DNA of 64,000 bases from an uncultured Geobacter sp. (GCA_903902855.1 CAIUWK010000068.1:3363-67362), one strand, 5' to 3'; counted from the first letter of the stretch, positions 18,419 through 60,358 are shown. Numbers and translations are program-made. The notes: a model not told the origin generated them from the sequence alone.

Positions 18419-18439
18419 GGCTTCTCCTTTACTTTTGCT

Positions 18440-20045: not shown

Positions 20046-20098
20046 CCGGATAATGACGGACCTGGGGAACGAGTCTGTACAAGGGAGGATAGTGATAA

Positions 20099-20460: not shown

Positions 20461-20587
20461 AGAGGCTGATCCGCCCTTCCCTCCCCTACCCCGTTGAAAA
20501 AGTAATTACGTCAGCAGAAAGCAGATGATCCCGAATGAGCATCGCGGGGTAATGAAGAATTTTGTACTACCATGATATGGAGGGAAT

Positions 20588-21577
20588 ATGAATACTGTTC
20601 AGACTACAGAGTTTATCATCGATAGTGACAATTCCGCCTGGGAGCTGCTGGAAAAGACTCTACGGGAAGGTGCACCAGAAGGTTTGCTCGACATCCGGTT
20701 TGATGGCTGGCCCAAGCTAGTATTTTGCCTAAAAGGCGACAAGTTCGATTCATCCCTGACAATCAAAACGATGAATTACTTCGTCGAATTGCAGCGAAAT
20801 ATCAATTGCTCTTATGCCCAATTGAAGTACAATCGGCCTAACGCGATTGGATTATCCAATTCCGAACGGGATAGCCTAGAGCTCATAGTTAAGGTTGATA
20901 AAGGCTCGTCTATTTTCGAGGTCAACTTTCAACAGGCTTTTGAGGGACTTTTAAAGGGGATCGTTGGCAAAATGACTGGCACGGAGATGTTGTATACTAT
21001 TCTCGGCGTTGGGTTAATCTATGGCACGGTCACGGTGCTAAAGAATTACATCGATCAGCAGGGTAAAAACAAACAGATCGATATGATCCAGGCATTAAGC
21101 GTCCAGGAAACTGAGAAAATGAAGTTAATCGTCGAGGCTGCCAAGCGGCAACCGCAACTGGCACCCATCTACGCCGATGCTGAAGAGACTTACAACGATC
21201 TGCTTCGTAGTACCATTGAAGCTGATTATCTGGAAGTGGGTAAATATCGCCTGCAAAGGGATATTGCCGAACAAATGCTCAGGCAGAAGCGGGAAAAGTC
21301 GGTCGAGGTTCAGTTGAACGGCTATTACCGCATCCTCAGTGTGGACAGCTCTAAAAAAGAAGGCTTCACGGTTGGGCTCAGATCGGCAGATGATCAACGC
21401 GAGTTCCAGGCGGTACTTGATGATAATTTTGTATTCAGAAGGGATGCCAATCTGGAACTTATCAAGAATGCAGAATGGGGTAAGACCGATATTCATTTAC
21501 GCATTAATGGCAAAGAGCTCCGCGGGGCAATTCAACAAGCCACAATCATCGAAGTCATTATTGACAACATCAAGTAA
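20588..21577 (+). CDS. orphan 329-aa protein with one central hydrophobic helix and a coiled-coil
   Basis: GGAGGG SD. MLYTILGVGLIYGTVTVL is the only hydrophobic segment. Visibly AT-richer than the phage core. I recognise no family. Confidence 0.55.
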   Translation: MNTVQTTEFIIDSDNSAWELLEKTLREGAPEGLLDIRFDGWPKLVFCLKGDKFDSSLTIKTMNYFVELQRNINCSYAQLKYNRPNAIGLSNSERDSLELIVKVDKGSSIFEVNFQQAFEGLLKGIVGKMTGTEMLYTILGVGLIYGTVTVLKNYIDQQGKNKQIDMIQALSVQETEKMKLIVEAAKRQPQLAPIYADAEETYNDLLRSTIEADYLEVGKYRLQRDIAEQMLRQKREKSVEVQLNGYYRILSVDSSKKEGFTVGLRSADDQREFQAVLDDNFVFRRDANLELIKNAEWGKTDIHLRINGKELRGAIQQATIIEVIIDNIK

Positions 21578-21584
21578 CACAAAA

Positions 21585-21609
21585 ATGAGGGGCAAACATC
21601 GCCCCTCAT
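21585..21609. terminator. GC hairpin after the cargo genes
   Basis: atgaggggc / gcccctcat 9-bp stem with a 7-nt loop. The A5 run upstream reads as a T-run on the minus strand, so the canonical form is for leftward transcription. Confidence 0.5.
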
Positions 21610-21615
21610 CCAGGT

Positions 21616-21672
21616 TCAAACCAACCGAAATTTTCACGGCGCAAATCCATCAAACCAACCTTGAAAACATTC
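21616..21672. repeat. two direct repeats TCAAACCAACC-(1-2 nt)-GAAA near the prophage end (candidate transposase-binding sites)
   Basis: tcaaaccaaccgaaattttc at 21616-21635 and tcaaaccaaccttgaaaacattc at 21650-21672. Confidence 0.4.
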
Positions 21673-21761
21673 CTTCTCCACCCTCCCGTCAACCATTCGC
21701 CAATCATCGTCGCGGTCATTTATCGCATTTCCCCCTACTTGTTTATCCTCCCCCCCTTTAA

Positions 21762-21992
21762 CAGGACGACGGAACTGTTCTGGGCGGTAACGGTCCTTAC
21801 TACGTCTCCAACAACAAGAACGGCAACGCGGGCTACCCTTGGGCGCTGGACATCCCGCAGGGATGGAAGTGGCCGACGGAGACGATCGATATCGTGACGG
21901 CGTATCCGAACTTTGCGGCATGGGTCCAATCGAGCGGCAAGCTGCAAACCACGTGGTATCTCTCGCCAAACAGTGCGAAGGTTTATCCGTAA
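21762..21992 (+). pseudogene. 3' fragment of an LruC/DUF4842-domain gene, 5'-truncated
   Basis: The frame opens right after a stop at 21759-21761, with no start codon. Encodes QDDGTVLGGNGPYYVSNNKNGNAGYPWALDIPQGWKWPTETIDIVTAYPNFAAWVQSSGKLQTTWYLSPNSAKVYP, which resembles the LruC C-terminal motif as I recall it. Confidence 0.55.
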
Positions 21993-22016
21993 GAAGCGCC
22001 CGACAGGTACGACAAC

Positions 22017-26387: not shown

Positions 26388-26450
26388 ACCCTTCACTTTT
26401 CACCATTCACTTTTCACCATTCACCCTTCACAATTCACAATTTACAATGT
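26388..26450. repeat. 7-nt array (CCCTTCA/CTTTTCA/CCATTCA) x9
   Basis: cccttca cttttca ccattca cttttca ccattca cccttca caattca caattta caatgta. Confidence 0.9.
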
Positions 26451-27313
26451 ACCCCTATTCTGCCGCAGAGGTCATCCACGAACTGGCGGGCCGCACGACC
26501 CGAGCGATGCCCCCGCTGGGTAGCCCACCGGAGCGCGGAGAGGCGCAGGGTCTCCGGTGCCACCTTCACCCCGGCCTGAGCCGCATACCCCGCCACGATG
26601 GCCAGATACGTCTCCTGATCAAAGGGGTAGAAGCTGAGCTGCAGCCCGAAGCGGTCAGCCAGAGAGAGCCGGTCGGAGATCGCCTCTTCCGGGTGAATCT
26701 CTTCCCCCCGGGTATCCGCCGTCTGCTCCGGCATGAGGTGGCGCCGGTTGGAGGTGGCATAAATGAGGGTATTGGCGGGGCGTTCCTCCAGACCACCGTC
26801 CAGGAGGGACTTGAGCTCCTGGTACGAGGCGTCCCCCTGGGCAAAGGAGAGGTCATCGCAGAAGACGATGAAACGCCGGGGGTCATCCCGGAGGAGTTCC
26901 AACAGTTGCGGCAGGGTGGAGAGATCGGAACGCTCCACCTCAACGAGGCGCAACCCCCGTTCAGCGAACCGCTTGAGCAGACCCTTCACGCAGGAGGATT
27001 TGCCGGTCCCCCGCTCACCCCAGAGAAGGACGTTGTTGGCCGGGAATCCCGCCACGAACTGCTCCGTGTTCCGGAGCAGATCATCCAGCGAAGAGTCGAT
27101 CCCCACCAGATCATTCAGCTCCACCAGATGGGGATGGCGCACCGGTGTGAGCACTCCCCCCCTCCCCCGCCGTTCCCAGCGGAAGGCGATCCATTGGGCA
27201 AAACAGGCGGGGTCGAAGTGAGTCGCCGGCTGGAACACCTCCAGCAACCCCTCAGCCCGGGCCAGTAGCGACTCCAGCCGCTCTGCCACGTTCTCCCACG
27301 ATTTTTCGGCCAT
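26435..27313 (-). CDS. DUF815-family AAA ATPase
   Basis: 292 aa. Walker A GERGTGKSS and Walker B FIVFCDDLSF. Confidence 0.7.
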   Translation of the reverse strand: MAEKSWENVAERLESLLARAEGLLEVFQPATHFDPACFAQWIAFRWERRGRGGVLTPVRHPHLVELNDLVGIDSSLDDLLRNTEQFVAGFPANNVLLWGERGTGKSSCVKGLLKRFAERGLRLVEVERSDLSTLPQLLELLRDDPRRFIVFCDDLSFAQGDASYQELKSLLDGGLEERPANTLIYATSNRRHLMPEQTADTRGEEIHPEEAISDRLSLADRFGLQLSFYPFDQETYLAIVAGYAAQAGVKVAPETLRLSALRWATQRGHRSGRAARQFVDDLCGRIGVHCKL

Positions 27314-27317
27314 GACG

Positions 27318-27809
27318 TCAGATCCCCCTCAGCGAACAGCTCCGCTCCCACTCGTAGTAGCCGTCTCCGGAGATCGCCCAGAAGCTGCTGATCCGCTCTT
27401 CGTAGAAGAGGTGGTCGTCGCACTCCGCCTCGATCCGTTTCAGGAGGGAGCCGGAGATCAGCTCATGAAGGTTCAGGAACCGGTAAAAAGAGCGTATCCC
27501 GGCAAGATGCCTGGTCAGCTCCTCTATGGTGGGTTCCAGGGTGTTGACGATATACCAGTTAGCGGCAAAGGGCTTCACCGGCGATCGCACCTCGTCGAAG
27601 AGGTGCCACTGCTTGTACCCCACCACGAAGTCACGGATGAAATAGTCGGCGCTTCGGGCCAGTTCCGTGGCTATCTCCGGGTCCCCCCCCTCCGCCTGAA
27701 GCTCTTCGTAGAAGGTCATGAGCAGGTCCCGGCAGAGGCCGTCCACCCGGATTTCATCTTCGATGGTGGCTATGGCAAAATCGACTGGCTGTACATTCAG
27801 AGCGTTCAT
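27318..27809 (-). CDS. hypothetical protein (163 aa)
   Basis: ORF-track ORF 4 nt upstream of the DUF815 gene. No family recognised. Confidence 0.45.
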   Translation of the reverse strand: MNALNVQPVDFAIATIEDEIRVDGLCRDLLMTFYEELQAEGGDPEIATELARSADYFIRDFVVGYKQWHLFDEVRSPVKPFAANWYIVNTLEPTIEELTRHLAGIRSFYRFLNLHELISGSLLKRIEAECDDHLFYEERISSFWAISGDGYYEWERSCSLRGI

Positions 27810-27899
27810 GAAACCTCACGTTCAATGTTGAGACAAAAACAACGCCCCGCGTCCTGGAGTGGATACGGGGCAAAACGAGACTCAGGGAGGGGGGAAATA

Positions 27900-28145
27900 C
27901 TATGCGGCCAACCGCTGCTCTTCGTTACTTAACATCGCGGCTATGCTCAGATGATAATCCAGGTCAGGCCACTCAATGCCGGTTCCCCTGCAGATAAAAC
28001 GATAATTCGACAGTTGCTTGAGTGAGGAGTTACGCAACTCCGGGTACCACTCCATGGGTGTGGATATGATCCGTTTATCGGCTAATTCCACATGCAGATA
28101 GGATTCATCGAAATGGACCTTTTTACCTTTCAGAGAAGAATTCAT
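27900..28145 (-). CDS. DUF2442-family small protein
   Basis: ATG at 28145 with a GGAGA SD. YLHVELADKRIISTPMEWYPEL...IEWPDLDYHLS is DUF2442-like. Confidence 0.55.
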   Translation of the reverse strand: MNSSLKGKKVHFDESYLHVELADKRIISTPMEWYPELRNSSLKQLSNYRFICRGTGIEWPDLDYHLSIAAMLSNEEQRLAA

Positions 28146-28356
28146 ACCATTTCTCCACAAATAGATCTCGATGTATCTTGACCAGTGCCATAACTTTCTT
28201 CAAATCAGCCGGTTTGAAAAAATTCTCCGTCACCGTAAGGGTAGCCAATTCAATCCGGGCGTAGCCGTTGCCCTTTTCCACATGGATATGCAGAGGAAGA
28301 TGTTCATTGGCATAGAAGAAAAATTTGAACCCAGCGTGAACAAGCAGCGTCGGCAT
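28123..28356 (-). CDS. DUF4160-family small protein
   Basis: 77 aa. FKFFFYANEHLPLHIHVEKG is the DUF4160 signature. Overlaps its DUF2442 partner. Confidence 0.6.
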   Translation of the reverse strand: MPTLLVHAGFKFFFYANEHLPLHIHVEKGNGYARIELATLTVTENFFKPADLKKVMALVKIHRDLFVEKWYEFFSER

Positions 28357-28417
28357 GGAGTGAGAGTACGTAATTTATCCCAACGCGTCAAGAACTATGC
28401 CTGCACAAGGAGAAAAG

Positions 28418-29269
28418 TTACCGATTCAGCCTGGGGTCAAGGGCGTCCCGCAACCCTTCCCCCAGGAGATTATAGGCGAGAACCGTCAGGAGAATGGCAA
28501 GACCGGGGAAGAGGGAGAGCCACCAGGCGAACTCGATGTAATCTTTCCCGGCGGTGAGAATATTGCCCCAACTGGGGGTGGGGGGCTGGACCCCGATCCC
28601 CAGAAAGGAGAGGGCCGACTCGGTGAGGATGGCGCCGGCAACCCCCAGGGTGGCGGTCACCAGCACCGGGGAGAGGGCGTTGGGGAGGATATGATGCACG
28701 ATGATCCGGAGATCCGAGGCCCCAAGACCTCGGGCCGCCAGAACGAACTCCCGCTCCCGGAGGGTGAGGACTTCGGCCCGAACCAGCCGCGCCACCCCCA
28801 TCCAACCGGTGAGGCCGATGATGATCATGATGTACCAGATGGAAGGCTCCAGCATGGCGATGACCGCCAGGATCAGGAAGAAGGTGGGAAAGCAGAGCAT
28901 GATATCCACCAACCGCATGAGGAGGGAATCCAGCCAGCCGCCGTAAAAACCGGCCACAAGACCGACGGAAGTCCCGATGAGGACCGCTATCCCCACCGCC
29001 ACGAAGCCGACCTTGAGAGAAACCCGGGCACCGTAGATAACCCGAGTCAGGACATCCCGCCCCAGTTCGTCGGTGCCGAACCAATGCTGGGACGACGGCG
29101 CCAGCAGCACATGCCAGGCGTCCAGGTGGGACGGGTCATAGGGGGTGATGAACGGCGCCAGAAACGAGAGGAGAAAGAGGAACCCCACGACCACCCCCCC
29201 GGCCAGGGCCGGCCGGTTCCGGCAAAATCGTTTCCAGACGACGGATATGAAGTAGCTGTTACGAAACAT
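28418..29269 (-). CDS. peptide/nickel ABC transporter permease (OppC/DppC-like)
   Basis: ATG at 29269, 2 nt after the OppB-like stop. 283 aa with a binding-protein-dependent permease core. Confidence 0.85.
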   Translation of the reverse strand: MFRNSYFISVVWKRFCRNRPALAGGVVVGFLFLLSFLAPFITPYDPSHLDAWHVLLAPSSQHWFGTDELGRDVLTRVIYGARVSLKVGFVAVGIAVLIGTSVGLVAGFYGGWLDSLLMRLVDIMLCFPTFFLILAVIAMLEPSIWYIMIIIGLTGWMGVARLVRAEVLTLREREFVLAARGLGASDLRIIVHHILPNALSPVLVTATLGVAGAILTESALSFLGIGVQPPTPSWGNILTAGKDYIEFAWWLSLFPGLAILLTVLAYNLLGEGLRDALDPRLNR

Positions 29270-29271
29270 AC

Positions 29272-30252
29272 TTATCCCCCCCCATGCCGGATGCGCGGGT
29301 CGGCCAGGGCATAACAGAGGTCGGCCAGCAGGTTCCCCACCAGGGTCAGTCCGGCGCCGATGACCAGGATTCCCATGACCAGCGGATAGTCCCGGGCCAT
29401 GACCCCCATGAAGAAGAGCTGCCCCATGCCGGGGATGGCAAAGATGGTCTCGAAGATGACGCTCCCGCCGATGAGACCGGGAAGGGAAAAACCGAGGAGG
29501 GTGATGATGGGGAGGAGCGCGTTGCGCAGGGCGTGCTTGAGGATCACGGTCCGCTCGCTCAGCCCCTTGGCCCGGGCCGTGGTGATGTAATCCTGACCGA
29601 TGACCTCCAGCATGGTGGAGCGCATGTAGCGGGAGAGTCCGGCCAGGCTGCCGAAGGAGGCCACCCCCAGGGGAAGGATGAGATGCCGCGCCAGGTCCAG
29701 GAGCCAGGGAAACGGCGCCAGCCGTTCGCTCCCCAGGGAGTGGAGCCCGGAGATGGGGAGCCACTCCAGCTTAACCCCGAAGAGGTACATGAGAAGCAGC
29801 GCCAGCCAGAAGGTGGGCATGGCAAACCCCAGGAAGACGAAGAGGGTGAGCCCCTTGTCCAGCAGGGTACTGCGCCGCACCGCCGCCAGGATGCCGATGG
29901 GGAGCGCCAGACCGAATTCCAGAACCAGGGCGATGAGGTTCAGGGAGAGGGTAACCGGAATCCGTTCCCTGATCTTGTCCATGACCGGCCGGTTGTCCGG
30001 AGCAAAGGAGCGACCGAAATCCAGCCGGGCGATTCGCCCCAACCAGAGGCCATACTGGACATGGAGCGGCTTGTCCAGCCCATAGAACTCCCGAAGCCGC
30101 TGGCGAGTCTCGGCGGTGATCTTGGGACTCATGGCGGTCTGCATCTCCACCGGCTCGCCGGGGGCCAGATGGATCACCGTGAAGGTAATCAGGGTGATCC
30201 CCAGGAGCAGCGGGAAGAGCATGGCGATCCGTTTGAGAAGATAGGCTGCCAT
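29272..30252 (-). CDS. peptide/nickel ABC transporter permease (OppB/DppB-like)
   Basis: 326 aa. [34 protein letters not shown] is the canonical OppB N-terminus. Confidence 0.85.
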
Positions 30253-30274
30253 AAAACAGATTTACCCCTTCATA

Positions 30275-31018
30275 TTACGGACAGACGGGATGTCCCAGTA
30301 TCGTTGAATCGAGGTACGTGGTCAGATTGCCGACCAGGATCGGTTCCGGCCGCTCTGCGGCAACAACTCTCTCAGGTTGCGCCGGATACGTCCGCTTCAC
30401 CGCTACCTTGCGGCGGCGGGCCATGGTTGCGGTCACGGCACGCCGGTGCCGGGGCACGACCCTGCGGCAATTTGCAGGCTGAGACTCTTCAATTTTCCGT
30501 GGCGGCGGGAGGAGGGTCGGTGGAGCCTCTTTGTGCGGGGCTTCTTCCCGCTTGCGGGCCGTCTCTTCTCCCTTTCTCCGGGGTGGATCCATCTGCAGCC
30601 GTTGGGCTTCCACCTCCTTGCGGGCCTCGGCCAACAGCTCCTTGTCGGCCACGATCTTCACGGAGAGCTCGTCCAGGGCCGTTCCCACAACCTTAAAAGA
30701 GTCGTCCTGGTTCTCTCCCGGCTTCAGCGTAATCCGGGCGGTTTTTTCCCTGACTCCGTTTCCGGTTTTCCAGGCAATGGTGTATTCAACGGTCACCTCC
30801 CCCTCATACTTGCTGGAAAAGCGCCAGATATGGTCACAATTCACGGCGCCGGCAGGGGGGCAATTGTCGGCAAAACTGAACTCGATGCCGTTCAAGGCCC
30901 CGTCATCCGGCGTCTGCCAGGGGGACCAGTCACGGGCATGAGAGAGTCCCGACGACCCGCATACCAGCAGTGCCAACAGAGATGGCGTCAGGAAGCATTT
31001 CAGAGGGTTATTGCGCAT
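30275..31018 (-). CDS. secreted protein with a basic Pro/Arg-rich C-terminal half, unknown
   Basis: Signal peptide MRNNPLKCFLTPSLLALLVCGSSGLSHA. Inserted between the binding-protein and permease genes. Confidence 0.45.
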   Translation of the reverse strand: MRNNPLKCFLTPSLLALLVCGSSGLSHARDWSPWQTPDDGALNGIEFSFADNCPPAGAVNCDHIWRFSSKYEGEVTVEYTIAWKTGNGVREKTARITLKPGENQDDSFKVVGTALDELSVKIVADKELLAEARKEVEAQRLQMDPPRRKGEETARKREEAPHKEAPPTLLPPPRKIEESQPANCRRVVPRHRRAVTATMARRRKVAVKRTYPAQPERVVAAERPEPILVGNLTTYLDSTILGHPVCP

Positions 31019-32633
31019 ATCTCTGCTCTTTCTTGGGGACATACCACCTGATGAAATCATAGCTGATCCCGGCCGGGGCCGGCACGATCCCCCGGACCCG
31101 GGCGCTCACGGTGGGGAGGGCGTCGGGGACGTACAGGAAAGTATAGGGTTGCTCTTGGGCCAGGATCTCCTGAATCCGCCAGTAGCAGCGCTGTCGCTCT
31201 TTCTGATCGAAGGTTCCCCGTCCCGCCACGATGAGCCGGTCCACCTCCTCGTTCTTGTAGCCGATGAAATTCAGCTCCTTCTTGCCGCTCTTGCTGGAGT
31301 GCCAGACATCGAAGATATCCGGGTCCTGTCCCAGGGTCCACCCCAGGATCACCGCCTCGAAGTTTCGCGTATCGATGAAGTGGGTAATGAAGGAGGCCCA
31401 CTCGATGACCCGGATCTTCATGTCGATCCCCACGGACCGGAGCCGCTGCTGGATGATCTGTGCGCTCTTCAATCGCTCGGCATTCCCCTGGTTGGTCAGG
31501 ACCGTAAACTGAAACGGTTTCCCCCCCTTGTCCAGAATGCCGTCACCGTCCGTGTCGCGCCACCCGGCCTGGGCCAGGAGTCGGCGCGCCTCGGCCGGAT
31601 CATAGGCCGGGTCGATGATGTGGGGATTCCAGGCCCAAGTTCCCGGTTTGTACGGCCCCTTGGCTGTCTGTCCCATCCCCAGGAGCACCCCCTGGATGAG
31701 CTCCTCCTTGTTGATGGCATGGGTCAGGGCGCGCCGTACCCGGAGGTCACTGAAGAGGGGATTCCGGAGATTGTACCCCATATAGACATAGGATGAGGCG
31801 GGATAGCGGTACTTGTTAAAGTGCTCCAGGAAGCTCGCGCCTACGGTCTGACGCTGGTACTGCACCGGGGTCAGATTCATCATGTCGATGCCGCCGGCCT
31901 TCAACTCCAGGTACATGGTGGAGCTATCCGGGATGAGCCTGTCCACCACCCGGTCCAGGTACGGCCTCCCCTCGAAGTAACCGTCAAAGGACTCCAGGGT
32001 GATCTGCTGCCCCGCCACCCACTCCTTCAGCCGGTACGGCCCGGTACCCACCGGTCGCCGCGCCAGGTCGGTGCGGGTGATATCCTTCCCCTCCAGCAGG
32101 TGGGCAGGAAGGATACTGCTTCCCCAGGAGGCCAGGGCCGGGGCAAAGGGGTGATCATAGGTGACCCGGACGGTGTAGGGGTCCGGACACTCCACCTTCT
32201 TGACCTGCTTGAAATCCTCGGCATAGGAGGTGGGGGTCTTGGGGTCGATGGTGACCCCATAGGTATAGAGGACGTCACGGCCGGTAAATTCGTGACCGTC
32301 CTGCCACTTGACCCCTTGACGGAGGTGAAAGGTGATGACGAGCCCGTCGGGGGAGACCTCCCAGGAGCGAGCCAGATCCCCCACAAGATTCAGCTCCTTG
32401 TCGTACTTGACGAGCCCGTTATAGATGTAGCCGGCAATGGAGTGGGAGGCGGCGTCGGAGGCCAGCAGGGGGATGAGGGTGGACGCCTCGCCGATGGAAC
32501 CGGTGACGAGAGTGTCACCGGTGGCCGGAATACCGGCGCTCCGCTGCCGGGGGATACCAGGGGGATCAGGCTGATTACAGCCGGAGAGGAGCAGCAAAGA
32601 GCAGAGGAGCAGGCGGACCAGCCGCACGCTCAT
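31008..32633 (-). CDS. ABC transporter substrate-binding lipoprotein, family 5 (OppA/DppA-like)
   Basis: 541 aa. Lipobox LLSG-C. Typical SBP_bac_5 length and motifs. Confidence 0.85.
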   Translation of the reverse strand: MSVRLVRLLLCSLLLLSGCNQPDPPGIPRQRSAGIPATGDTLVTGSIGEASTLIPLLASDAASHSIAGYIYNGLVKYDKELNLVGDLARSWEVSPDGLVITFHLRQGVKWQDGHEFTGRDVLYTYGVTIDPKTPTSYAEDFKQVKKVECPDPYTVRVTYDHPFAPALASWGSSILPAHLLEGKDITRTDLARRPVGTGPYRLKEWVAGQQITLESFDGYFEGRPYLDRVVDRLIPDSSTMYLELKAGGIDMMNLTPVQYQRQTVGASFLEHFNKYRYPASSYVYMGYNLRNPLFSDLRVRRALTHAINKEELIQGVLLGMGQTAKGPYKPGTWAWNPHIIDPAYDPAEARRLLAQAGWRDTDGDGILDKGGKPFQFTVLTNQGNAERLKSAQIIQQRLRSVGIDMKIRVIEWASFITHFIDTRNFEAVILGWTLGQDPDIFDVWHSSKSGKKELNFIGYKNEEVDRLIVAGRGTFDQKERQRCYWRIQEILAQEQPYTFLYVPDALPTVSARVRGIVPAPAGISYDFIRWYVPKKEQRYAQ

Positions 32634-34354
32634 CGATCTCCGCTCTCGGAGTGGATCTTTTTCAACCGTTCCAGATACTCCTTCTTCTCCGGCTCCTGTT
32701 TAATGAGTTTGCGGTAGGTTGCGATGGCGTTATCATATTCCCGGCTGGCGTAGTACGCCTCGGCCAAATGCTCCAGGATCGCAGGATCGTCGGCAACCAC
32801 CGTGAGGGCTCGCTGCAGGTTGACGATGGCCAGGTCGTACTTCTTCATCTTGTAATAGACCCACCCCAGGCTATCCAGGATGAAGCCGTCACCGGGAGTC
32901 ACCTCCAGGGCGTGATTGATGTACCCCAGAGCCTCGGTGAGATGAACCCCCATATCGGCATAGGTGTACCCCAGGTAGTTCAGAGCCTGGGCATCGTCGG
33001 GGACCATGGCAATGACCTTTTTCATCATGGCGATGGACTCCTCTCTCTTCCCGGTCTTATCGTAGAGTATCCCGATATTGAAGAAGAGCCGGGGCTCCTT
33101 GGGAAAATCATCCGCCACCCTCAACAGGACCTCCACCCCTTTCTGCTGCTCCCCCAGGGAGTCAAGGTACCGGGAGAGGAGCAGATACGGTTCCACCCCC
33201 CCTGTTTTAGCCTCCGCAGCCCTCGTGAGGAGGGCCAGCCCCGCCTGGGGGTTCCCCTGCTCCTTATAGAGGTAGGCGATATGGCTGAGAGCCTCCAGAT
33301 AGACCGGCGCGGTGGGGGGAATTTTCAGAAACTCCTCCAGAGCCTTGGCATTTAGTTCCTTCCCCTCGTAGGCCGATGCCAGATAGAAGCGGAGTTGCCA
33401 GGAATCGGGCTCCTTTTCCAGAAGCGATGCGAAGAGCGCCACGGCGTCGTCATACCGTTCAAGCTCCAGGTAGAGAAGGCCGATTTTTCGCTGGATGTCG
33501 TTGCTCCCATGCCCGGATACCACCAACTCCTTGAGCATTGTCAAGGCATCCTCGTATCGCTGCTGCTGGATGAAGAGCTGAATGAGATGCTGACGGACAA
33601 CGGCGTTGTCCGGATTGTTTTCCAGAAGGGTCCGGTAGGTGACAACGGCGTCGTCGGTGAGCCCCTGGGATTCCTGGGAAATCCCCAGATCGATGAGCGC
33701 CTGCTCGAAGTCGGGCTTGGAAACCAGTGCCCGCTTGTAATAGACGATGGCCTCCTTGGAGAGCTTCATCTGCTCGTAGCTCTTCCCCAGGTAGTAGTTT
33801 ACCAAGGTGGAATCGGGGTCCCGCTCCAGGTATGATTTCAGGATTTTCACCGCCTTGTCATACTCCAACAGTTTGACGTAGGCGACGGAGAGATGCAGAT
33901 AGGCGTCTTCCTTGGCAGGGTCCAGCTCGATGGCCTTGAGATAGTGAGGCACCGACTCTTCATTGCGCCGGACCATGGTGAAGAGATTTGCCAAGAGGAG
34001 CTGGGCCTGACGACTCTCCGGGTCCAGTACCACCGATTTTTCAGTGGCAACGATGGCCTCCTGAATCCGGCTGCTCTTCATATGGATACCGGCGGCGGCC
34101 AGATAGAGATACGCCGCATCAGGGTCATCTTCCATGGCGGTTCCGATGAGCTGGAGCGCCCCGTCCGGGTCCCCCTCCAGAAGCCGCAGACGCGCCCGGG
34201 AGTACTGATAGAGCGCCCTGCTCTTCAGCTCCCGGGGAGTAACGATCTCATCCTGAGCGGCGGAGAGGGGGATCGTTTCCGTGGTTGCGCACGAGGTCAG
34301 GGTAACGGTAAAACAGAGAGTAAGGAGGAGGTGAAGAATAAGTTGCCTATCCAT
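32630..34354 (-). CDS. TPR-repeat lipoprotein
   Basis: ATG at 34354 and lipobox LTS-C. Many A..Y..AL..DP TPR-like repeats. Confidence 0.7.
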   Translation of the reverse strand: MDRQLILHLLLTLCFTVTLTSCATTETIPLSAAQDEIVTPRELKSRALYQYSRARLRLLEGDPDGALQLIGTAMEDDPDAAYLYLAAAGIHMKSSRIQEAIVATEKSVVLDPESRQAQLLLANLFTMVRRNEESVPHYLKAIELDPAKEDAYLHLSVAYVKLLEYDKAVKILKSYLERDPDSTLVNYYLGKSYEQMKLSKEAIVYYKRALVSKPDFEQALIDLGISQESQGLTDDAVVTYRTLLENNPDNAVVRQHLIQLFIQQQRYEDALTMLKELVVSGHGSNDIQRKIGLLYLELERYDDAVALFASLLEKEPDSWQLRFYLASAYEGKELNAKALEEFLKIPPTAPVYLEALSHIAYLYKEQGNPQAGLALLTRAAEAKTGGVEPYLLLSRYLDSLGEQQKGVEVLLRVADDFPKEPRLFFNIGILYDKTGKREESIAMMKKVIAMVPDDAQALNYLGYTYADMGVHLTEALGYINHALEVTPGDGFILDSLGWVYYKMKKYDLAIVNLQRALTVVADDPAILEHLAEAYYASREYDNAIATYRKLIKQEPEKKEYLERLKKIHSESGDR

Positions 34355-34524
34355 GGGAAATCCGTTAATAAAATAGCACCCCTTGAGATGAAGGGGCGCA
34401 GGAGAAAAGGTGCCGGTCAAACGACCAGATGCAAGCGGTAAGGTCCGGAGGGCTCTTTGCCGTCACGTTAGGCAACGTAGCACAAAAAAGCGGAACCGGT
34501 CAAATAAAGAAACAGGAAAGTTCA

Positions 34525-36102
34525 ATGATCGAAAACGTGATCGACTCTCTGCTGAAACCGGCCGCCTACCCCGATCCGACGCCGGACGTCCGACTGATCC
34601 AGACCCACGTCTCCTTCATCTTTGTCACCAAGCAGTTCGTCTACAAGGTCAAGAAGCCGGTGGAGCTGGGTTTCCTAAACTTCACGACCCTGGAACGCCG
34701 ACAGTTTTACTGTCACGAAGAGCTCCGCCTGAACCGCCGCCTGGCCCCGGAGATCTACCTGGAGGTGGTTCCTGTTCGGCTGACACCCCGCGGCGCCTCG
34801 TTGTGCGGTGACGGCGAGGTCATCGACTATGCCGTCAAGATGCTCCGTCTTCCCGAAGAGCTGATGATGAGCCGGCTCCTGGCAGAGGGGGGAGTTACCG
34901 CCACTCAGGTCAGATGCTTGGCAAGGATCGTGGCCCGCTTCCACCTGGCTGCGGCCACCGGGCCGGAGATTGCCCGTTATGGCGAACCAGAAGCGATCCT
35001 CGCCAACTGGGAGGAAAATTTCACCATCGTAGCGCCGTTTGTGGGGCGGACCATAAGCCGGGAAGATTTCCGTCTCATCCGCGGGTGGGTCCGGGAGTTC
35101 CTTGACGGAAACATGCTCCTCTTCCAGCGCCGGGTTACCGATGGGTTCATCCGCGAAGGGGACGGAGATCTTCATGGCGGGAACATCTGCCTCACCGACC
35201 CGCCGGTGATCTTCGACTGCATCGAGTTCAACGAGCGATTTCGCTGCCTGGACACGGCGGCGGACATCGCCTTCCTCCTCATGGATCTGGAGTATTACGG
35301 CGCGGGGCGCCTGGTTAAGGAGTTCGTGGCAGAGTACTGCGCCATCACCAAAGATCCCGGCGCCGGGGAACTCCTCCCCTTCTATGAGCTCTACCGGACC
35401 GTTATCCGGGGAGAGGTGGAGAGCATCAAGTCGGGGCAACAAGAGCTCTCACCGGAAGAGCGGGAAGAGGCAGGGGAGAGTGCCCGGCGGCACTTCCGTC
35501 TGGCCCGTGGCCTGATCATCCGAGAAAACCTTTCCCCGACCCTCTTCATCACCTGCGGTCTCAGCGGCAGCGGCAAGAGTGCCCTGGCCTCTGAGCTCTC
35601 CCTGCAACTGGGGCTGGATCATTTTTCTTCGGACCGGCTGCGCAAGCAGCTTGCCGGCCTCACACCCACGGAGCGCTGCAGCGATGACCAGCGTGACGCT
35701 CTCTACGGTCACTCCTTCACCCGCAAGACCTACGACCGACTCCTGGAGGCGGCCCAAGAGGCCCTGCGTGAAGGGAGGAATGTCATCGTGGACGCCACCT
35801 TCCGGGAACGACGGGAGCGGATGGCGTTTCACCATCTGGCTGCCACCCATGGGGTCCGCTTCGTGATCCTCCGGCTCCGCGCTCCTGAAACAGTGATTCT
35901 GGAGCGTCTCCAGGCCCGGGAACAGCAGCGGGACGTGATCTCCGATGCCCGTGAGTCGGTCTATTTCAGTCAGAAAAACGAATTCGAGCCCCCCGAAACC
36001 TTCGAGGGAGAACTAATGGTTGTCGACACGACGCAAACTTTATTGCATACTGTGGATGCGCTACTGACCTCACTGGGAGTTCTGCCATGTGGCCACAACT
36101 GA
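34525..36102 (+). CDS. fusion of an APH-like phosphotransferase domain and a P-loop (AAA_33-like) kinase domain
   Basis: ATG at 34525. N-terminal part has DLHGGN and the FDCIEFN kinase-like motif. C-terminal part has Walker A GLSGSGKS. Confidence 0.65.
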   Translation: MIENVIDSLLKPAAYPDPTPDVRLIQTHVSFIFVTKQFVYKVKKPVELGFLNFTTLERRQFYCHEELRLNRRLAPEIYLEVVPVRLTPRGASLCGDGEVIDYAVKMLRLPEELMMSRLLAEGGVTATQVRCLARIVARFHLAAATGPEIARYGEPEAILANWEENFTIVAPFVGRTISREDFRLIRGWVREFLDGNMLLFQRRVTDGFIREGDGDLHGGNICLTDPPVIFDCIEFNERFRCLDTAADIAFLLMDLEYYGAGRLVKEFVAEYCAITKDPGAGELLPFYELYRTVIRGEVESIKSGQQELSPEEREEAGESARRHFRLARGLIIRENLSPTLFITCGLSGSGKSALASELSLQLGLDHFSSDRLRKQLAGLTPTERCSDDQRDALYGHSFTRKTYDRLLEAAQEALREGRNVIVDATFRERRERMAFHHLAATHGVRFVILRLRAPETVILERLQAREQQRDVISDARESVYFSQKNEFEPPETFEGELMVVDTTQTLLHTVDALLTSLGVLPCGHN

Positions 36103-36344
36103 AACAACTCCTCCTGACACGTCTCCGATTCCGTGAATCGTGGATTTTGTTCTTCGTGTTCGGTCTGATCATGATGAATTACCCCTTCATCAGCATCTTC
36201 AACAAGCCGACGCAACTCTTCCAGATCCCGATCCTCTATCTCTACCTCCAGGTCGGCTGGGCTGTCTCCATTTTCGTCATCTGGCTCTTCAACAAGGCCA
36301 ATAATGAAGACGACCGCGACGGCGCCCCGAAAGAAGGACCTTGA
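36087..36344 (+). CDS. small two-TM membrane protein (DUF4212-like solute-symporter small subunit?)
   Basis: 85 aa with two hydrophobic helices. Overlaps both neighbours (16 nt upstream, ATGA downstream). Confidence 0.45.
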   Translation: MWPQLKQLLLTRLRFRESWILFFVFGLIMMNYPFISIFNKPTQLFQIPILYLYLQVGWAVSIFVIWLFNKANNEDDRDGAPKEGP

Positions 36345-39300
36345 TGCTCCAGCCGGAACTGGTTATCGGAGTATCCCTCCTCTATATTCTGCTGTTGTTC
36401 ATCATCGCCGCCTGGGCCGACAAGCGCCAGGCGTCCGGGCGAAGCGTTGTCGCCAATCCCCATATCTACTCCCTTTCCATCGCCGTGTTCGCCACCGCCT
36501 GGACCTACTACGGCAGCGTGGGGAAGGCCGCCACCACCGGACTCGACTATCTCCTCATCTATCTGGGCCCCTCCCTCACCGCCTTTTCCTGGTGGTTCAT
36601 GCTGCGCAAGACGGTGCGGATCTGCCGCGAGAACAATATAACCTCCATCGCCGACTTCATCGGCTCCCGCTACGGCAAGTCCCAGCGCCTGGGGGGGCTG
36701 GTGACTCTCATCGCCGTGCTGGGGATCATGCCGTACATCGCCCTCCAGTTGAAAGCGGTCTCCACCTCCTTCGAGATTCTCTGCGGCCAACCTCATGTCT
36801 CCATCCCGCTCCCCGGGGGAGGTGACGTCCCCGTGGGGAGCAGCGCCCTGGCGGCGGGGATACTGGCGCTCTTTGCCGTCCTCTTCGGCGCTCGGCGACT
36901 CTCTTCCACCGAGCGGCACGAAGGGCTGGTGGCGGCCATCGCCCTGGAGTCGGTGGTCAAGCTCTGCGCCTTCCTGGTGGTGGGGATTTATGTCACCTTC
37001 TTCCTCTTCGACGGCTTTCACGACATCTTCGGCCGAATGGCCGCCGCATATCCGGAACGACTGGACCACCTGACTACCCTGGGAGATCCCGGTGAGGTCT
37101 CCTACGCCTCCATCTTTTCCATGCTGGCCATCTCCATGGGGGCGATCATGCTCCTCCCCCGCCAGTTTCATATCATGGTCATCGAAAACGCCGACGAACG
37201 CCATATCAGGAAGGCCATGTGGCTCTTCCCCGCCTACCTCTTTCTCATCAATCTCTTTGTCATGCCCATAGCCTTGGCCGGTATCCTCTTCACCGACTCC
37301 GGCGCCGGCGCCGACTTCTACCTCCTCTCCCTCCCCCTGAAGGCGGGACACCCCTGGCTGGCGCTCCTGGCCTTCCTGGGAGGGTTCTCCGCCGCCGCCG
37401 GAATGGTGATGGTGGAATCCATCGCCGTCAGCACCATGCTGCTGGATCACCTCCTCATGCCGCTTTTGGTCCGGATCGCCCCCAACGGCTGGTTTCCCGG
37501 ACTGTTCCTGAACCTGAAGCGGTGCGGCATCGTCCTTGTGGTCTTTTTGGGGTATCTCTACCTCAACGTGGTGGCTGATAAGTACATGCTCGTGAACATG
37601 GGGATCATCTCCTTCGTGGCCGCGGCCCAGTTCGCCCCCGCCTTCATCGGCGGACTCTACTGGCGTCGCGGGAACAAGTCCGGCGCCCTGGTGGGGATGT
37701 CCCTGGGGTTCATCCTCTGGTTCTACACCCTGCTCCTCCCCTCTCTCATCCAGAGCGGGTGGTGGAAGAGCCGTCTCCTGGAGGAAGGGCTCTTCGGCAT
37801 CCCCCTCCTCCGCCCCACCGCCCTCTTCGGCCTTGAGGAGTTCGACCTGAATACCCATGCCGTCTTCTGGACTCTCCTCTTCAATCTGGGGGGGTATCTG
37901 ATTTTCTCCATCCTCATGCCCCAGGGGGAGCGGGAGCAGGAACCGGCAGAGAAATTCGTGAATGTGTTCAAGCCCCGGGAAGAAGAGTCCTGGGAGCGAA
38001 AACGTTTTTCCAAGCCGGTCACCATCATCCAGTTCGCCGACCTCATGGCCAAATTTGTGGGGGACGAGCAGGCCAACAGCGCCATTGCCGCCTATCTGGG
38101 AAACCGGGAGATCGACAAGAACGGCCGGGTCTCCGAGTTCGAACTCCCGACGCTCAAACGGTTCATCGAAAAGACCCTGGCCGGGGCGGTGGGGGCCGCG
38201 GCGGCGGGAGCCATCGTGGAGAGTTACCTCTCCGACATCGGTTCCCGGATGGAGTCCTTTTACGATGTCTTCCGCACGGTCCGGACTTCTCTGGAGGAGA
38301 GCCGCGAATCACTCTATTTCCGACTGCGCGCCTCGGAGATCATGAGCCGGACGCTCGATCTCCAGATCATCATCGACGACCTCCTGGAGCTGATCCGGAC
38401 CGATTTCGGCTTCAACCTGGTGCTGGTCAGACTCGCCACCGCAGGGGGGGTCCTGAAGGTCAGAGGGTTCCGTGGGATCGATATCCGGAAGATTACCCGC
38501 ACCGACTGGGTGGCTGCGGTGGACACCTACGTGGGGGAAGCCTTTCTCACCAACAAGATCCAGTTCGAGAACGACGTGAACCACGCCACCAAGCAGGTGA
38601 GCCGCGACCTCATGGAAACGGCGGGGGTCCGCTCCTTCGCTCATATCCCCATCGCCCGCCAGGGTGAATCCCCCATCGGCATCCTGTCGGTCTTTTCCCA
38701 GGATATCGTCGGTCTCTTCACCGAGGATTTTCTCAAGCTGCTGGCCAGCCTGGCGGGGCAACTAGCCCAGGCCGTCACCATCGTCTTCGAGATGGAGGCC
38801 CGGGAGCGGGAGCGCAAGGCCAAGGAACAGGCCCTTCTGGAGAATGCCCGGGTCCTGCGTGACATGGAGATCGCCAAGCAGATTCAGCGCTCCCTCCTCC
38901 CCACCACCCCGCCGAACCTGCCTGGATTGCAGATCGCCGGGAGCTGTCTTCCCGCAGCCCATGTGGGGGGAGACTACTTCGACTACTTCCTCAGGGAAGA
39001 CGACACTCTGGATGTGGTCATAGCCGATGTCTCCGGACACAATGTGGGGGCCGCCCTCATCATGACCGAGACCCGCAGCGTGCTCCGTGCCCATGTGCAG
39101 CAGGCGGTCTACCCCGGCGAGCTGATGCGGCGTCTCAACGAAGTCCTGTACGAGGATCTGAGCCGCTCCGAACTCTTCATCAGCATGTTCTATGTGAGCT
39201 ACACTTTCGAGAGCAGCCTGCTCCGCTACGCCAACGCCGGACACAACCGGCCGCTCCTGCTGAAACGGGAGGAGACGGAGTGCAGCGATCTGGACGCGGA

Positions 39301-39586
39301 GGGGCTGATTCTGGGAGTACTGCCGGACGTCACCTTCGAGGAGAAAACTGTACAGCTGGGGCCGGGGGACCTCCTTCTGCTCTACACCGACGGGATCATC
39401 GAATCCCAGAACAGCAGCGGGGAATTTTTCGGCATCCAGCGACTCAGCCGGACCCTGAAACTCCGCCGCGACGACACACCCGACGCCATTATCTCTGCGT
39501 TGTTCGAGGACCTCGACGAGTTTCTCGGAGACGCTCCGCCCGACGACGATATCACCCTGGTCGCACTGAAACTGGCAAAAAACTGA
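36341..39586 (+). CDS. SLC5/SSS transporter-like domain fused to GAF and PP2C (SpoIIE/RsbU-type) phosphatase
   Basis: 1081 aa. About 500-aa polytopic N-terminus, a linker, a GAF-like region, then PP2C motifs GGDYFDY, DVSGHNVGAAL, NAGH, LYTDGIIE and DDDITLV. Confidence 0.8.
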   Translation: MMLQPELVIGVSLLYILLLFIIAAWADKRQASGRSVVANPHIYSLSIAVFATAWTYYGSVGKAATTGLDYLLIYLGPSLTAFSWWFMLRKTVRICRENNITSIADFIGSRYGKSQRLGGLVTLIAVLGIMPYIALQLKAVSTSFEILCGQPHVSIPLPGGGDVPVGSSALAAGILALFAVLFGARRLSSTERHEGLVAAIALESVVKLCAFLVVGIYVTFFLFDGFHDIFGRMAAAYPERLDHLTTLGDPGEVSYASIFSMLAISMGAIMLLPRQFHIMVIENADERHIRKAMWLFPAYLFLINLFVMPIALAGILFTDSGAGADFYLLSLPLKAGHPWLALLAFLGGFSAAAGMVMVESIAVSTMLLDHLLMPLLVRIAPNGWFPGLFLNLKRCGIVLVVFLGYLYLNVVADKYMLVNMGIISFVAAAQFAPAFIGGLYWRRGNKSGALVGMSLGFILWFYTLLLPSLIQSGWWKSRLLEEGLFGIPLLRPTALFGLEEFDLNTHAVFWTLLFNLGGYLIFSILMPQGEREQEPAEKFVNVFKPREEESWERKRFSKPVTIIQFADLMAKFVGDEQANSAIAAYLGNREIDKNGRVSEFELPTLKRFIEKTLAGAVGAAAAGAIVESYLSDIGSRMESFYDVFRTVRTSLEESRESLYFRLRASEIMSRTLDLQIIIDDLLELIRTDFGFNLVLVRLATAGGVLKVRGFRGIDIRKITRTDWVAAVDTYVGEAFLTNKIQFENDVNHATKQVSRDLMETAGVRSFAHIPIARQGESPIGILSVFSQDIVGLFTEDFLKLLASLAGQLAQAVTIVFEMEARERERKAKEQALLENARVLRDMEIAKQIQRSLLPTTPPNLPGLQIAGSCLPAAHVGGDYFDYFLREDDTLDVVIADVSGHNVGAALIMTETRSVLRAHVQQAVYPGELMRRLNEVLYEDLSRSELFISMFYVSYTFESSLLRYANAGHNRPLLLKREETECSDLDAEGLILGVLPDVTFEEKTVQLGPGDLLLLYTDGIIESQNSSGEFFGIQRLSRTLKLRRDDTPDAIISALFEDLDEFLGDAPPDDDITLVALKLAKN

Positions 39587-39619
39587 CCCTGCGACCATTA
39601 CCAATCCCAGGAGGAAACC

Positions 39620-39955
39620 ATGAATCTGGACATCGCCGAACCAAAAAAGCTGGTGGTCATAACCATCAAGGAAGAGCGTCTCGACGCCCACAACGCCGCT
39701 GACCTGAAGGCCGAACTCCTGGCGCTCTTCGAACAGGGAAAGAAGAACATCCTCATCAACCTCCAGGACGTCCGGTTCATCGACAGCTCCGGTCTCGGCG
39801 CCCTGGTTTCAGGCTTCAAAAACGCCATTACCAACCAGGGGAGCCTGAAACTGGCGGGGCTGCAACCCCAGGTCAAATCCATGTTCGAACTGACCCGGCT
39901 GCACCGGGTGTTCGATATCTATCCCACCACTGCGGACGTCCCGGAACTCCCCTGA
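39620..39955 (+). CDS. STAS-domain anti-sigma-factor antagonist (RsbV/SpoIIAA-like)
   Basis: 111 aa. DLQDVRFIDSSGLGALV contains the phosphorylatable Ser motif. Confidence 0.8.
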   Translation: MNLDIAEPKKLVVITIKEERLDAHNAADLKAELLALFEQGKKNILINLQDVRFIDSSGLGALVSGFKNAITNQGSLKLAGLQPQVKSMFELTRLHRVFDIYPTTADVPELP

Positions 39956-39966
39956 GCGAGGACCCC

Positions 39967-40404
39967 ATGGAGAAGAACCGGATCGAAATCGATATCAAGA
40001 TTCCGAATCAGACCCGGTATCTGCGCCTCATCGGCAAGATCGGAGAAGAGTTGGCCATCGGGCTGGACGAGTACGCGGGGAATCGGAATACCCTGGCGTA
40101 CTACATCAACCTGGTGCTCACCGAATCGGTGATCAATACCATAACCCATGCCAATGCCTGCGACCCGAACAAGATCGTGCACCTCAGCATCGGTATCGAA
40201 CAGGATGATCTCGTAATCAGGGTTTTTGACGAGGGAAAGGGGTTCGATATCAACGAGGTGCCCCCTCCGGATTTTGAAGACCTGGCGGAGGGAGGACGGG
40301 GGGTCTTCCTCATCCGCTCCATCATGGATTCGGTGAACTACCGAAAAAAAGGGTCCGAAAACGTGCTGGAGATGAGGAAGAGTCTGGTAAAAGGTGAGAA
40401 GTGA
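39967..40404 (+). CDS. RsbW/SpoIIAB-like anti-sigma Ser kinase (HATPase_c)
   Basis: 145 aa. N-box ESVINTITHA and G-box DEGKGF...GGRGVFLI. Confidence 0.75.
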   Translation: MEKNRIEIDIKIPNQTRYLRLIGKIGEELAIGLDEYAGNRNTLAYYINLVLTESVINTITHANACDPNKIVHLSIGIEQDDLVIRVFDEGKGFDINEVPPPDFEDLAEGGRGVFLIRSIMDSVNYRKKGSENVLEMRKSLVKGEK

Positions 40405-40590
40405 AAGGCTGACTGAAGGTGAATGGTGAATAGCAGGAAGTGAATGGTGAATAGTGAATGGTGAAAAGTGCAACGGCACGAGAGGCTCTTTTCACCATTC
40501 ACGTTTCACCATTCACGTTTTAGACGTTTCACCATTCACCATTCACCATTCACCATTCACATGTTAGACGTTTCACCGTTGACGTTTCTC
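40395..40590. repeat. large inverted pair of TTCACCA-type arrays forming a long imperfect hairpin between convergent genes
   Basis: gtgaatggtgaatag...gtgaatggtgaaaagtg, a ~20-nt loop, then ttttcaccattcacgtttcaccattcacg...ttcaccattcaccattcaccattcac. Confidence 0.9.
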
Positions 40591-60322: not shown

Positions 60323-60358
60323 CACAAAAACCCGTAGACCATTCAACAAGGAGACGCC

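Follow-up and report, generated by a model that had tools for sequence, protein, structure and literature searches.

An SLC5-STAC transporter-like sensor fused to a PP2C phosphatase in a conserved, probable partner-switching operon of Geobacter

Layout of the locus

A stretch of 64,000 nucleotides (nt) from an uncultured Geobacter sp. (GCA_903902855.1, CAIUWK010000068.1:3363-67362), hereafter the window, within which all positions are counted, carries five co-directional, closely packed open reading frames (ORFs) on the plus strand between 34525 and 40404. The third of these genes, designated g1 to g5, encodes a protein in which a transporter-like SLC5 domain is joined through a STAC domain and a GAF domain to a PP2C phosphatase, and it is followed by genes for a STAS protein and an RsbW-like kinase. 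The functional core of the locus is g2-g3-g4-g5, and these four genes are best explained as a unit in which a CbrA-type sensor with a small partner drives a partner switch, an interpretation that we regard as probable. The genes are the following, protein lengths being given in amino acids (aa).

34525-36102, plus strand: g1, predicted kinase fusion of 525 aa from an ATG with GGAAAG upstream (the longest ORF runs from 34429), with an N-terminal APH/protein-kinase-like part (DLHGGN...FD) and a C-terminal AAA_33 P-loop kinase
36087-36344, plus strand: g2, membrane protein of 85 aa with two hydrophobic helices
36341 or 36344 to 39586, plus strand: g3, sensor phosphatase of 1081 or 1080 aa according to the start codon
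39620-39955, plus strand: g4, STAS protein of 111 aa
39967-40404, plus strand: g5, RsbW/SpoIIAB-like GHKL kinase of 145 aa

An earlier note made on this DNA had described five tightly packed genes, and its reading frames and distances are exact: g1 and g2 overlap by 16 nt, g3 and g4 are separated by 33 nt, and g4 and g5 by 11 nt. Shine-Dalgarno-like sequences precede g2, g4 and g5, with AGGAGG upstream of g4. The ATGA overlap announced at 36341-36344 has to be corrected, the g2/g3 junction actually reading ccTTGATGctc. Translation of g3 may thus begin at the TTG at 36341 (TTGA, 4-nt overlap) or at the ATG at 36344 (TGATG, 1-nt overlap), and the g2 stop codon overlaps the g3 start under either choice. 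The corresponding junctions of relatives point both ways: with TTGATC or GTGATC, the form found in some, the start must be the first codon, and with CTGATG, found in others, it must be the ATG. The gene call of an identical public contig uses the ATG, and the ATG-start protein is on record in the databases, whereas the TTG-start version has no exact record. A promoter scan (one promoter-like site versus 1.9 expected) was uninformative, as was a terminator scan, in which terminator-like sites were mostly intragenic and none lay 3' of g5. Rfam and tRNA scans detected no RNA element in or beside the operon.

The sensor half of g3

Five segments are distinguished in g3, with residues numbered from the ATG.

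36344-37933, plus strand: residues 1-530, SLC5/SSS-type polytopic domain of the CbrA type, about 13 helices
38006-38239, plus strand: residues 555-632, STAC domain, two alpha-hairpins, from the alignment with the CbrA STAC
38318-38788, plus strand: residues 659-815, GAF domain (GAF_2, E 4e-10)
38723-38896, plus strand: residues 794-851, single long helix leading from the GAF domain to the phosphatase
38900-39577, plus strand: residues 853-1078, SpoIIE/RsbU-type PP2C (PPM) phosphatase (SpoIIE, E 8.5e-54)

The SLC5-like nature of the N-terminal domain, already proposed in the earlier note, is borne out and can be narrowed to the CbrA type. In a sequence search of solved structures, residues 8-629 align with residues 11-592 of PDB 10ed chain A (E 3e-68), with 32% identity over 582 aligned residues. 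Chain A is deposited as a 'histidine kinase' of 606 residues, and the accompanying chain X counts 58 residues, the length reported for the small protein CbrX. Because K196 and the pocket numbering fit and chain X has the length of CbrX, we take 10ed_A for the Pseudomonas putida CbrA construct, comprising SLC5 and STAC, that a 2026 preprint describes (PMC13022988). In family searches, the Pfam SSF profile matches with 25.8 bits versus a cut-off of 22.8, while NCBIfam MctP (E 1.6e-11) and TIGR03648, the VC_2705 symporter family (E 1.1e-8), match residues 86-485 under their cut-offs. The AlphaFold2 (AF2) model has a mean predicted local distance difference test score (pLDDT) of 64 and a predicted template-modelling score of 0.38; its membrane part is unreliable and usable for secondary structure alone, for which it gives about 13 long helices at low confidence over residues 1-524.

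The lysine of the Na2 site of CbrA, K196, aligns with K206 of g3, which is invariant in an alignment of 14 g3 orthologs sharing 59-86% identity (alignment A1). Among the eight CbrA residues listed as lying in the pocket or just above it, five are identical or conservatively replaced in g3, the correspondences being Y51 to F49, S53 to T51, W55 to W53, A56 to T54, F71 to Y69, Y75 to Y73, F248 to S264 and F406 to F424. Judged from this alignment, the g3 pocket is related to, yet not identical with, that of CbrA, and its ligand can reasonably be inferred to be a carboxylate-bearing small solute.

In the literature, STAC is the domain that joins a 13-transmembrane-helix SLC5 domain to signalling domains, and reviews describe it as coupling SLC5 to histidine kinases or GGDEF domains. 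Its assignment in g3 follows from the full-length alignment with CbrA, in which 19 of the 66 residues paired with the CbrA STAC in 10ed_A are identical; taken alone, the linker gives only chance matches in a phmmer search of the PDB and none in Pfam. The AF2 helices at 561-572, 574-585, 601-616 and 618-632 reproduce the published two-hairpin layout, and the published motif LGPx(x)A is partly kept as FVGDEQA and AVGAAAA. G573, Q576 and A577, as well as G617 and A619-A621, are invariant in A1. With this residue-by-residue alignment and the four modelled helices between 561 and 632, the STAC-like linker put forward tentatively in the earlier note is confirmed.

The output half of g3

Residues 659-836 match chain A of PDB 2QYB, the solved GAF region of the g3 ortholog from Geobacter sulfurreducens, with an E-value of 1e-63. 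The long helix that follows (58 residues, pLDDT mostly 73-85) is strongly conserved in A1 and is, according to the model, a candidate dimeric coiled-coil linker. Control of PPM phosphatases by a coiled-coil linker has been published for RsbU and proposed for other sensor-PPM fusions, including GAF-type ones. The long helix between the GAF and PP2C domains fits this published mechanism and is counted in favour of the partner-switching interpretation.

The phosphatase domain matches RssB (3eq2/3f7a), Rv1364c (3ke6) and SpoIIE (3t91) in the PDB and carries the motifs GGDYFD, DVSGH, TDG and DDD. D877, D880, D895, G898, H899 and D1016 are invariant in A1, and D1068/D1069 are conserved at 90% or more. 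The predicted GAF and PP2C domains are therefore present with conserved metal-binding motifs. A Pfam search of g3 found neither HisKA nor HATPase_c, the C-terminus being of the SpoIIE/PP2C type.

The g2 family of small membrane proteins

The earlier note had compared the 85-aa product of g2 to DUF4212, the small subunit of certain solute symporters, but profile hidden Markov models do not make it a member. The window copy matches no Pfam family at E<=10 and no NCBIfam family at E<=0.1, DUF4212 and TIGR03647 included. Within the g2 family, DUF4212 is matched by one of 31 members (E 0.0017) and DUF3311 by ten of 31 (E 0.0018 or weaker), and a member associated with a histidine kinase reaches 13.4 bits for DUF4212 and 13.8 bits for DUF3311 versus cut-offs of 30 bits. 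Membership was rejected for DUF4212, which the window copy does not match and for which relatives stay below threshold (about 13-14 bits at best versus 30 for kinase-associated members), and for DUF3311, whose matches are likewise sub-threshold. One UniRef entry nevertheless calls a g2-family member a 'DUF4212 domain-containing protein'.

CbrX is the best counterpart of g2. It is a peptide of 58 aa with two helices, whose gene overlaps cbrA and is translationally coupled to it, and cryo-electron microscopy of CbrA shows CbrX bound to transmembrane helices TM3 and TM8 and the STAC domain rigidly docked under the SLC5 domain (PMC13022988). The position, topology and stop/start overlap of g2 match those of CbrX. 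At the level of sequence, the relationship is suggestive only. Neither phmmer nor the profile of the g2 family alignment (A2) found a CbrX match in the PDB; a broader profile (A6) retrieved the CbrX chain 10ed_X among three PDB matches at E=2, and the score of A6 against 10ed_X beat all but 12-23 of 5000 composition-matched shuffles (p ~0.002-0.005).

The g2 family is nevertheless well defined by its own conservation and position. Alignment A2 contains 14 invariant positions (W19, F23, G26, P33, F34, I37, F38, P48, Y53, G57, W58, S61, I62 and F68), and the common pattern of the family is G-x4-N-Y-P ... F-N ... G-I-P-x2-Y-x-Y-x-F-x2-W. Among related loci, a g2 homolog stands directly upstream of g3 in 71 of the 79 that are testable, and in most loci the two genes overlap at the stop/start codons (GTGA, ATGA, TGATG or TAATG). 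A metagenome scan was seeded with the nearest histidine-kinase-type relatives of g3, and the g2-family profile was applied to the upstream ORFs; it placed a g2-family small ORF directly upstream of 47 of the 60 kinase-type and eight of the nine PP2C-type loci. Since the family stands upstream of both kinase- and PP2C-type sensors, it belongs to the sensor module irrespective of the output. A CbrX-like small membrane partner thus seems to accompany this sensor clade widely and not to be a Pseudomonas oddity.

The antagonist, the kinase and the sigma factor question

The g4 product is a single-domain STAS protein (E 1e-20) that scores 80.3 bits with TIGR00377, the anti-sigma-antagonist superfamily, versus a cut-off of 53.45. 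Its phospho-site motif is FIDSSGLG, with Ser56/Ser57, and DSSGLG is invariant in 65 g4 orthologs. The g5 product matches HATPase_c_2 (E 8e-22, 78 bits versus a cut-off of 27.4) and displays the N, G1 and G2 boxes, with E53/N57 in the N-box, DEGKGF and GGRG, again conserved in 65 orthologs. A STAS antagonist and an RsbW-like kinase had been named for these two genes, and the phospho-site and catalytic motifs agree with these names.

The earlier note had also remarked that no sigma factor gene is adjacent. This holds: tblastn searches with RpoD, SigB and RpoE found no sigma-70-family gene in the 64-kb window or, over a range of about 8 kb, in 82 related loci, and the queries were validated by the recovery of their PDB counterparts at 320-490 bits. 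The absence is less unusual than had been implied, because partner-switching modules for which no sigma factor has been identified are already on record from Rhodobacter, Bordetella and S. coelicolor.

An ordinary anti-sigma switch, in which g5 would be the anti-sigma factor of a distant sigma factor, for example of the RpoS or FliA type, is a serious possibility that we place a little below even. The score of g4 above the anti-sigma-antagonist superfamily cut-off speaks for it, as do the best named matches of g5, which are RsbW and SpoIIAB. Loci in which rsbV/rsbW homologues lie apart from their sigma gene are known, and published work describes RpoS under an RsbW-like switch in Pseudomonas. 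The same matches of g5 also weigh on the other side, since they reach 37-49 bits versus equivalog cut-offs of 135-155, and for the RsbW equivalogs alone 47-49 bits versus 145-155. The lack of a sigma-70-family gene in the window and around the 82 loci, and the existence of switches without an identified sigma factor, point in the same direction.

Conservation of the operon and the place of g1

Conservation was assessed on 81 related genome loci, from which the testable subset differs according to the question asked. Among the 70 loci testable on both sides of g3, 61 contain g2, g4 and g5 and keep the order g2-g3-g4-g5 at 47-84% identity, three contain g2-g3 without a nearby STAS or kinase gene, and six are paralogs without partners. 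Both g4 and g5 are present in 63 of 72 loci. The operon order is also found in all nine PP2C-type metagenome loci, and in that set g4 and g5 occur only beside PP2C-type sensors, none being found next to kinase-type relatives. Such recurrence goes far beyond what chance would produce. Three of the genomes are represented by more than one locus, which reveals paralogy within genomes. The PP2C clade was found only in Geobacterales, Desulfuromonadales and a few Desulfohalobiaceae.

Whereas g2-g3-g4-g5 stay together, g1 is found in 45 of the 70 testable loci and is absent from 25, so that the unit of five genes described in the earlier note has to be reduced to four. In at least eight of the loci without g1, a TPR gene stands upstream instead. 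Because of this distribution, g1 is an optional accessory neighbour outside the conserved core, and its candidacy as a core component was rejected on phylogenetic distribution. The domain calls made for the five genes in the earlier note were otherwise largely retained: AAA_33, SLC5, GAF, PP2C, STAS and the RsbW-like kinase stood, DUF4212 for g2 did not, and APH in g1 is below the Pfam cut-off. The AAA_33 match of g1 is strong (E 2.5e-34, 119 bits), whereas APH reaches 15.2 bits in the window copy (E 0.018) versus a cut-off of 23.2. Orthologs bear the NCBI name 'bifunctional aminoglycoside phosphotransferase/ATP-binding protein', several with a precomputed PF01636, and PDB matches are weak and solely to polynucleotide, adenylate and gluconate kinases.

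It was considered whether all five genes make up one system, in which g1 would phosphorylate the transported solute or a signalling protein and so tie uptake to the switch. The g1/g2 overlap, which measures 10-16 nt in G. pickeringii and G. sulfurreducens as well, favours such a link, and so does the position of g1 directly upstream in the loci that have it, Desulfuromonas-like ones included. The absences already described argue against it, all the more as neither the Desulfohalobiaceae-type g2-g3 loci nor any of the histidine-kinase-type relatives contain g1, and as the annotation of its family is generic. We consider this five-gene system decidedly unlikely.

Orphan SLC5-STAC-GAF-PP2C paralogs with 47-61% identity and without nearby g2, STAS or kinase genes were recorded at six loci (L011, L014, L016, L056, L060 and L075), and two further ones (L074 and L081) are testable on one side only. 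Some of them share a genome with a complete operon, as in Geobacter sp. UBA698 (L014, L032 and L081). The three loci that keep overlapping g2-g3 without a nearby STAS or kinase gene (L065, L068 and L073) are labelled Desulfovermiculus in two cases and Desulfohalobiaceae in one. At L065 and L073, the two inspected, g2-g3 are followed by an ORF of 271-273 aa of unknown family rather than by STAS and kinase genes.

G. sulfurreducens carries the operon (CP010430.1) with an intact STAS gene of 111 aa. In the Logan assembly SRR9118051, a G. sulfurreducens-type STAS gene shows a 25-nt deletion between GAACGAAG direct repeats, as seen by comparing the G. sulfurreducens-type loci L163/L164 (11170-11505) with L165 (11170-11530); about 19 similar places were collapsed into the SRR9118051 entry and not inspected singly. 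The deletion shifts the frame just ahead of the DSSG phospho-site, and the antagonist may have been knocked out in this way, either in nature or in the laboratory. At L165 (CP010430.1), an insertion sequence element with a DDE_Tnp_1 transposase (4665-5834) separates the TPR gene from g1, where the promoter of the operon is presumed to lie.

A possible output exchange among relatives

A search of 1.84 billion representative proteins with g3 returned 13,793 matches at E<=1e-30. Among the best 150, most cover only residues 1 to about 630-660, that is, the SLC5-STAC part, at about 40-50% identity. In a sample of 43 relatives purposely enriched for full-length matches, HATPase_c was found in 35, HisKA in 30, SpoIIE in four and GGDEF-EAL in one. 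The nearest relatives without PP2C have the architecture SLC5-STAC-GAF-HisKA-HATPase_c and share 42-46% identity over about residues 1-830, whereas two other PP2C-type representatives, at 37% identity, are farther from g3 than these kinase-type relatives. Since the nearest relatives outside the clade are SLC5-STAC-GAF histidine kinases, the same sensor would be wired to different outputs; on these comparisons the architecture of g3 looks like an output exchange on a common SLC5-STAC-GAF sensor within a kinase-dominated family, an exchange possibly made more than once. A relative of 1066 aa (P0144) with the architecture SLC5-STAC-GGDEF-EAL presents a third output type on the same sensor.

In databases, Geobacter g3 proteins are annotated either as SpoIIE family phosphatase or as sodium:solute symporter family transporter, and one ortholog is named 'protein IcfG' at NCBI. 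The fusion of a transporter-like sensor to a PP2C domain, presented in the earlier note as a departure from the usual histidine kinase output, is real, but proteins combining SSS, GAF and PP2C_SIG domains were already noted in Actinobacteria in the domain census of an SSS review. Each module is known, while the combination is uncharacterised and is an expected kind of domain shuffling. In a literature search, neither the Geobacter operon nor any SLC5-STAC-PP2C protein turned up as the subject of a functional study, although the original STAC paper may list the architecture, and the same held for the g2 small-protein family outside Pseudomonas CbrX.

Proposed mechanism

For the four-gene unit, we infer the direction of signal flow, the class of ligand, the substrates of phosphatase and kinase and the output as follows. 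The g3 protein would act as an SLC5-STAC sensor in the membrane, with transport as a possible second role (a 'transceptor'), and g2 would be its partner, its translation being coupled in the way known for CbrX and CbrA. A small solute that is bound or transported, probably one with a carboxylate group (an amino acid or an organic acid, for instance), would shift the SLC5 domain's conformation, and the docked STAC bundle and the GAF domain would relay this change to helix 794-851. This helix would set PP2C activity, probably through the geometry of a dimer. In the switch itself, g5 would phosphorylate g4 at Ser56/57 and the PP2C domain of g3 would remove the phosphate, so that unphosphorylated g4 could capture g5 and free whatever g5 holds. 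The target would be encoded elsewhere and could be a sigma factor whose gene lies beyond the operon or a protein of another kind; alternatively, g4 might itself be the effector.

Several points weigh against this interpretation. Published work on CbrA found signalling to persist in a variant without transmembrane domains, and growth on histidine not to require CbrX; for these reasons, and by analogy, the SLC5 domain may modulate the signal rather than provide it. The six partnerless paralogous loci and the three Desulfohalobiaceae-type g2-g3 loci have no STAS and kinase genes nearby, so that the phosphatase can work with partners encoded elsewhere. The homology of g2 to CbrX is not established by the profile match at E=2 and the shuffle test, and the membrane part of the AF2 model is of low confidence (mean pLDDT 64).

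The first of these points also bears on a different reading, according to which the GAF domain reads a cytoplasmic signal, while the SLC5-STAC part, together with g2, is mainly a membrane anchor, a dimerisation scaffold or an independent transporter and leaves the phosphatase uncontrolled. CrbS variants without the transmembrane part, like those of CbrA, still activate their targets, and their authors suggest cytoplasmic sensing; moreover, the GAF domain is highly conserved and folds independently, as in 2QYB. For a mere anchor, however, the conservation would be costly: pocket-region residues of the SLC5 domain, K206 and the STAC domain vary hardly or not at all among the 14 orthologs of A1, g2 is kept with its stop/start overlap in 71 of 79 loci, and STAC is rigidly docked in CbrA. 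A cytoplasmic signal read in this way is unlikely.

The partner-switching interpretation, in which the membrane sensor governs the phosphatase, lends itself to a broader proposal that we hold to be only somewhat less improbable than that reading: the g2 family would be a CbrX-homologous second subunit general to bacterial SLC5-STAC sensors, and in Desulfuromonadia a nutrient flux signal from this two-subunit transceptor would pass through a sigma-independent partner switch onto an enzyme, a transporter or its own STAS protein. If true, this would amount to a signalling route that is coupled to transport, independent of sigma factors and parallel to CbrAB, reporting for instance the flux of organic or amino acids. 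SLC5-STAC sensors, CbrA and CrbS among them, regulate carbon use globally. With the same sensor and small subunit placed on a chemically different output, phosphorylation of the STAS protein would offer an independent read-out for studying the transmission of SLC5-STAC conformations. The operon is also a defined addition to the partner switches without a known sigma output, and through it the physiology of metal-reducing bacteria may be linked to nutrient sensing. Among these, G. sulfurreducens is genetically tractable. The operon can be tested in this species, in which the GAF domain already has a crystal structure (2QYB).

Other features of the window

Upstream of the operon, a divergent minus-strand cluster (26435-34420) encodes a 596-aa TPR protein, SBP_bac_5, an ABC permease and, farther away, a DUF815 ATPase. 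The TPR and SBP_bac_5 genes lie upstream of the operon in 42 of the 54 loci where this could be tested, and lgt lies downstream in 29 of 58; these linkages may reflect either function or conserved genome order. In the window, g5 and lgt are convergent, and repeats separate them.

40419-40560, no strand assigned: inverted arrays of the heptamer GTGAATG/TTCACCA, between convergent g5 and lgt

These inverted repeats, 30-36 nt long and 89-93% complementary, may form a long hairpin or a bidirectional terminator. The tandem heptamer TTCACCA/GTGAATG is dispersed in the window (29-54, 13345-13370, 26399-26438, 40419-40560 and 60314-60325), and the 12-mer TTCACCATTCAC occurs 20 times versus 0.33 expected. 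Elsewhere, an Rfam match to sRNA-Xcc1 (RF02221) lies on the minus strand at 8131-8217, with 69.6 bits versus a gathering score of 53, and the G+C content falls to 0.47-0.49 at 18001-22000 versus about 0.55-0.62 in the rest of the window. The latter segment may be a horizontally acquired island.

Comparison with known systems

The small subunits of SSS transporters (DUF4212/TIGR03647 with VC_2705-type proteins, DUF3311 with MctP) resemble g2 as two-helix proteins beside an SSS-type domain, but their family profiles match g2 relatives below threshold only and the window copy not at all.

The operon shares with the RsbU-RsbV-RsbW and SpoIIE-SpoIIAA-SpoIIAB modules of B. subtilis a SpoIIE-family PPM phosphatase, a STAS antagonist with DSSG and a GHKL kinase, all in one operon, whereas no sigma gene lies in or near the Geobacter operon. 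RsbU has an N-terminal domain that binds RsbT, in contrast to the polytopic transporter-like sensor of g3; SpoIIE, like g3, is a membrane protein. A trio without an adjacent sigma output is also found in RbaV/W/Y of Rhodobacter capsulatus, BtrV/W of Bordetella and SiaABC of P. aeruginosa, but the sensors of their phosphatases are receiver, HAMP and periplasmic domains, none being described with SLC5-STAC. We take the IcfG cluster of Synechocystis to be comparable to the g3-g5 trio, as a switch without an identified sigma factor.

According to the literature, CrbS/MxtR (acetate) and RpuS (pyruvate) belong to the same SLC5/STAC sensor family as g3. They are hybrid histidine kinases acting via LuxR-type regulators, whereas g3 has a PP2C domain instead; indeed, all characterised SLC5/STAC sensors have a HisKA and HATPase_c output, which g3 lacks.

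A close parallel is CbrX-CbrA of P. putida (PDB 10ed, PMC13022988). Both systems have homologous SLC5 and STAC domains with the Na2-site lysine kept, and in both the sensor gene is directly preceded by the gene of a small membrane peptide with two helices, the stop codon of the one overlapping the start codon of the other. The peptides differ in length (58 aa for CbrX, 85 aa for g2) and show no significant sequence match (E=2), and the pockets differ at A56 to T54 and F248 to S264. The outputs differ as well: CbrA ends with a PAS domain and a DHp-CA histidine kinase whose partner is a response regulator, whereas g3 ends with GAF and PP2C domains and has a STAS protein and a serine kinase as partners.

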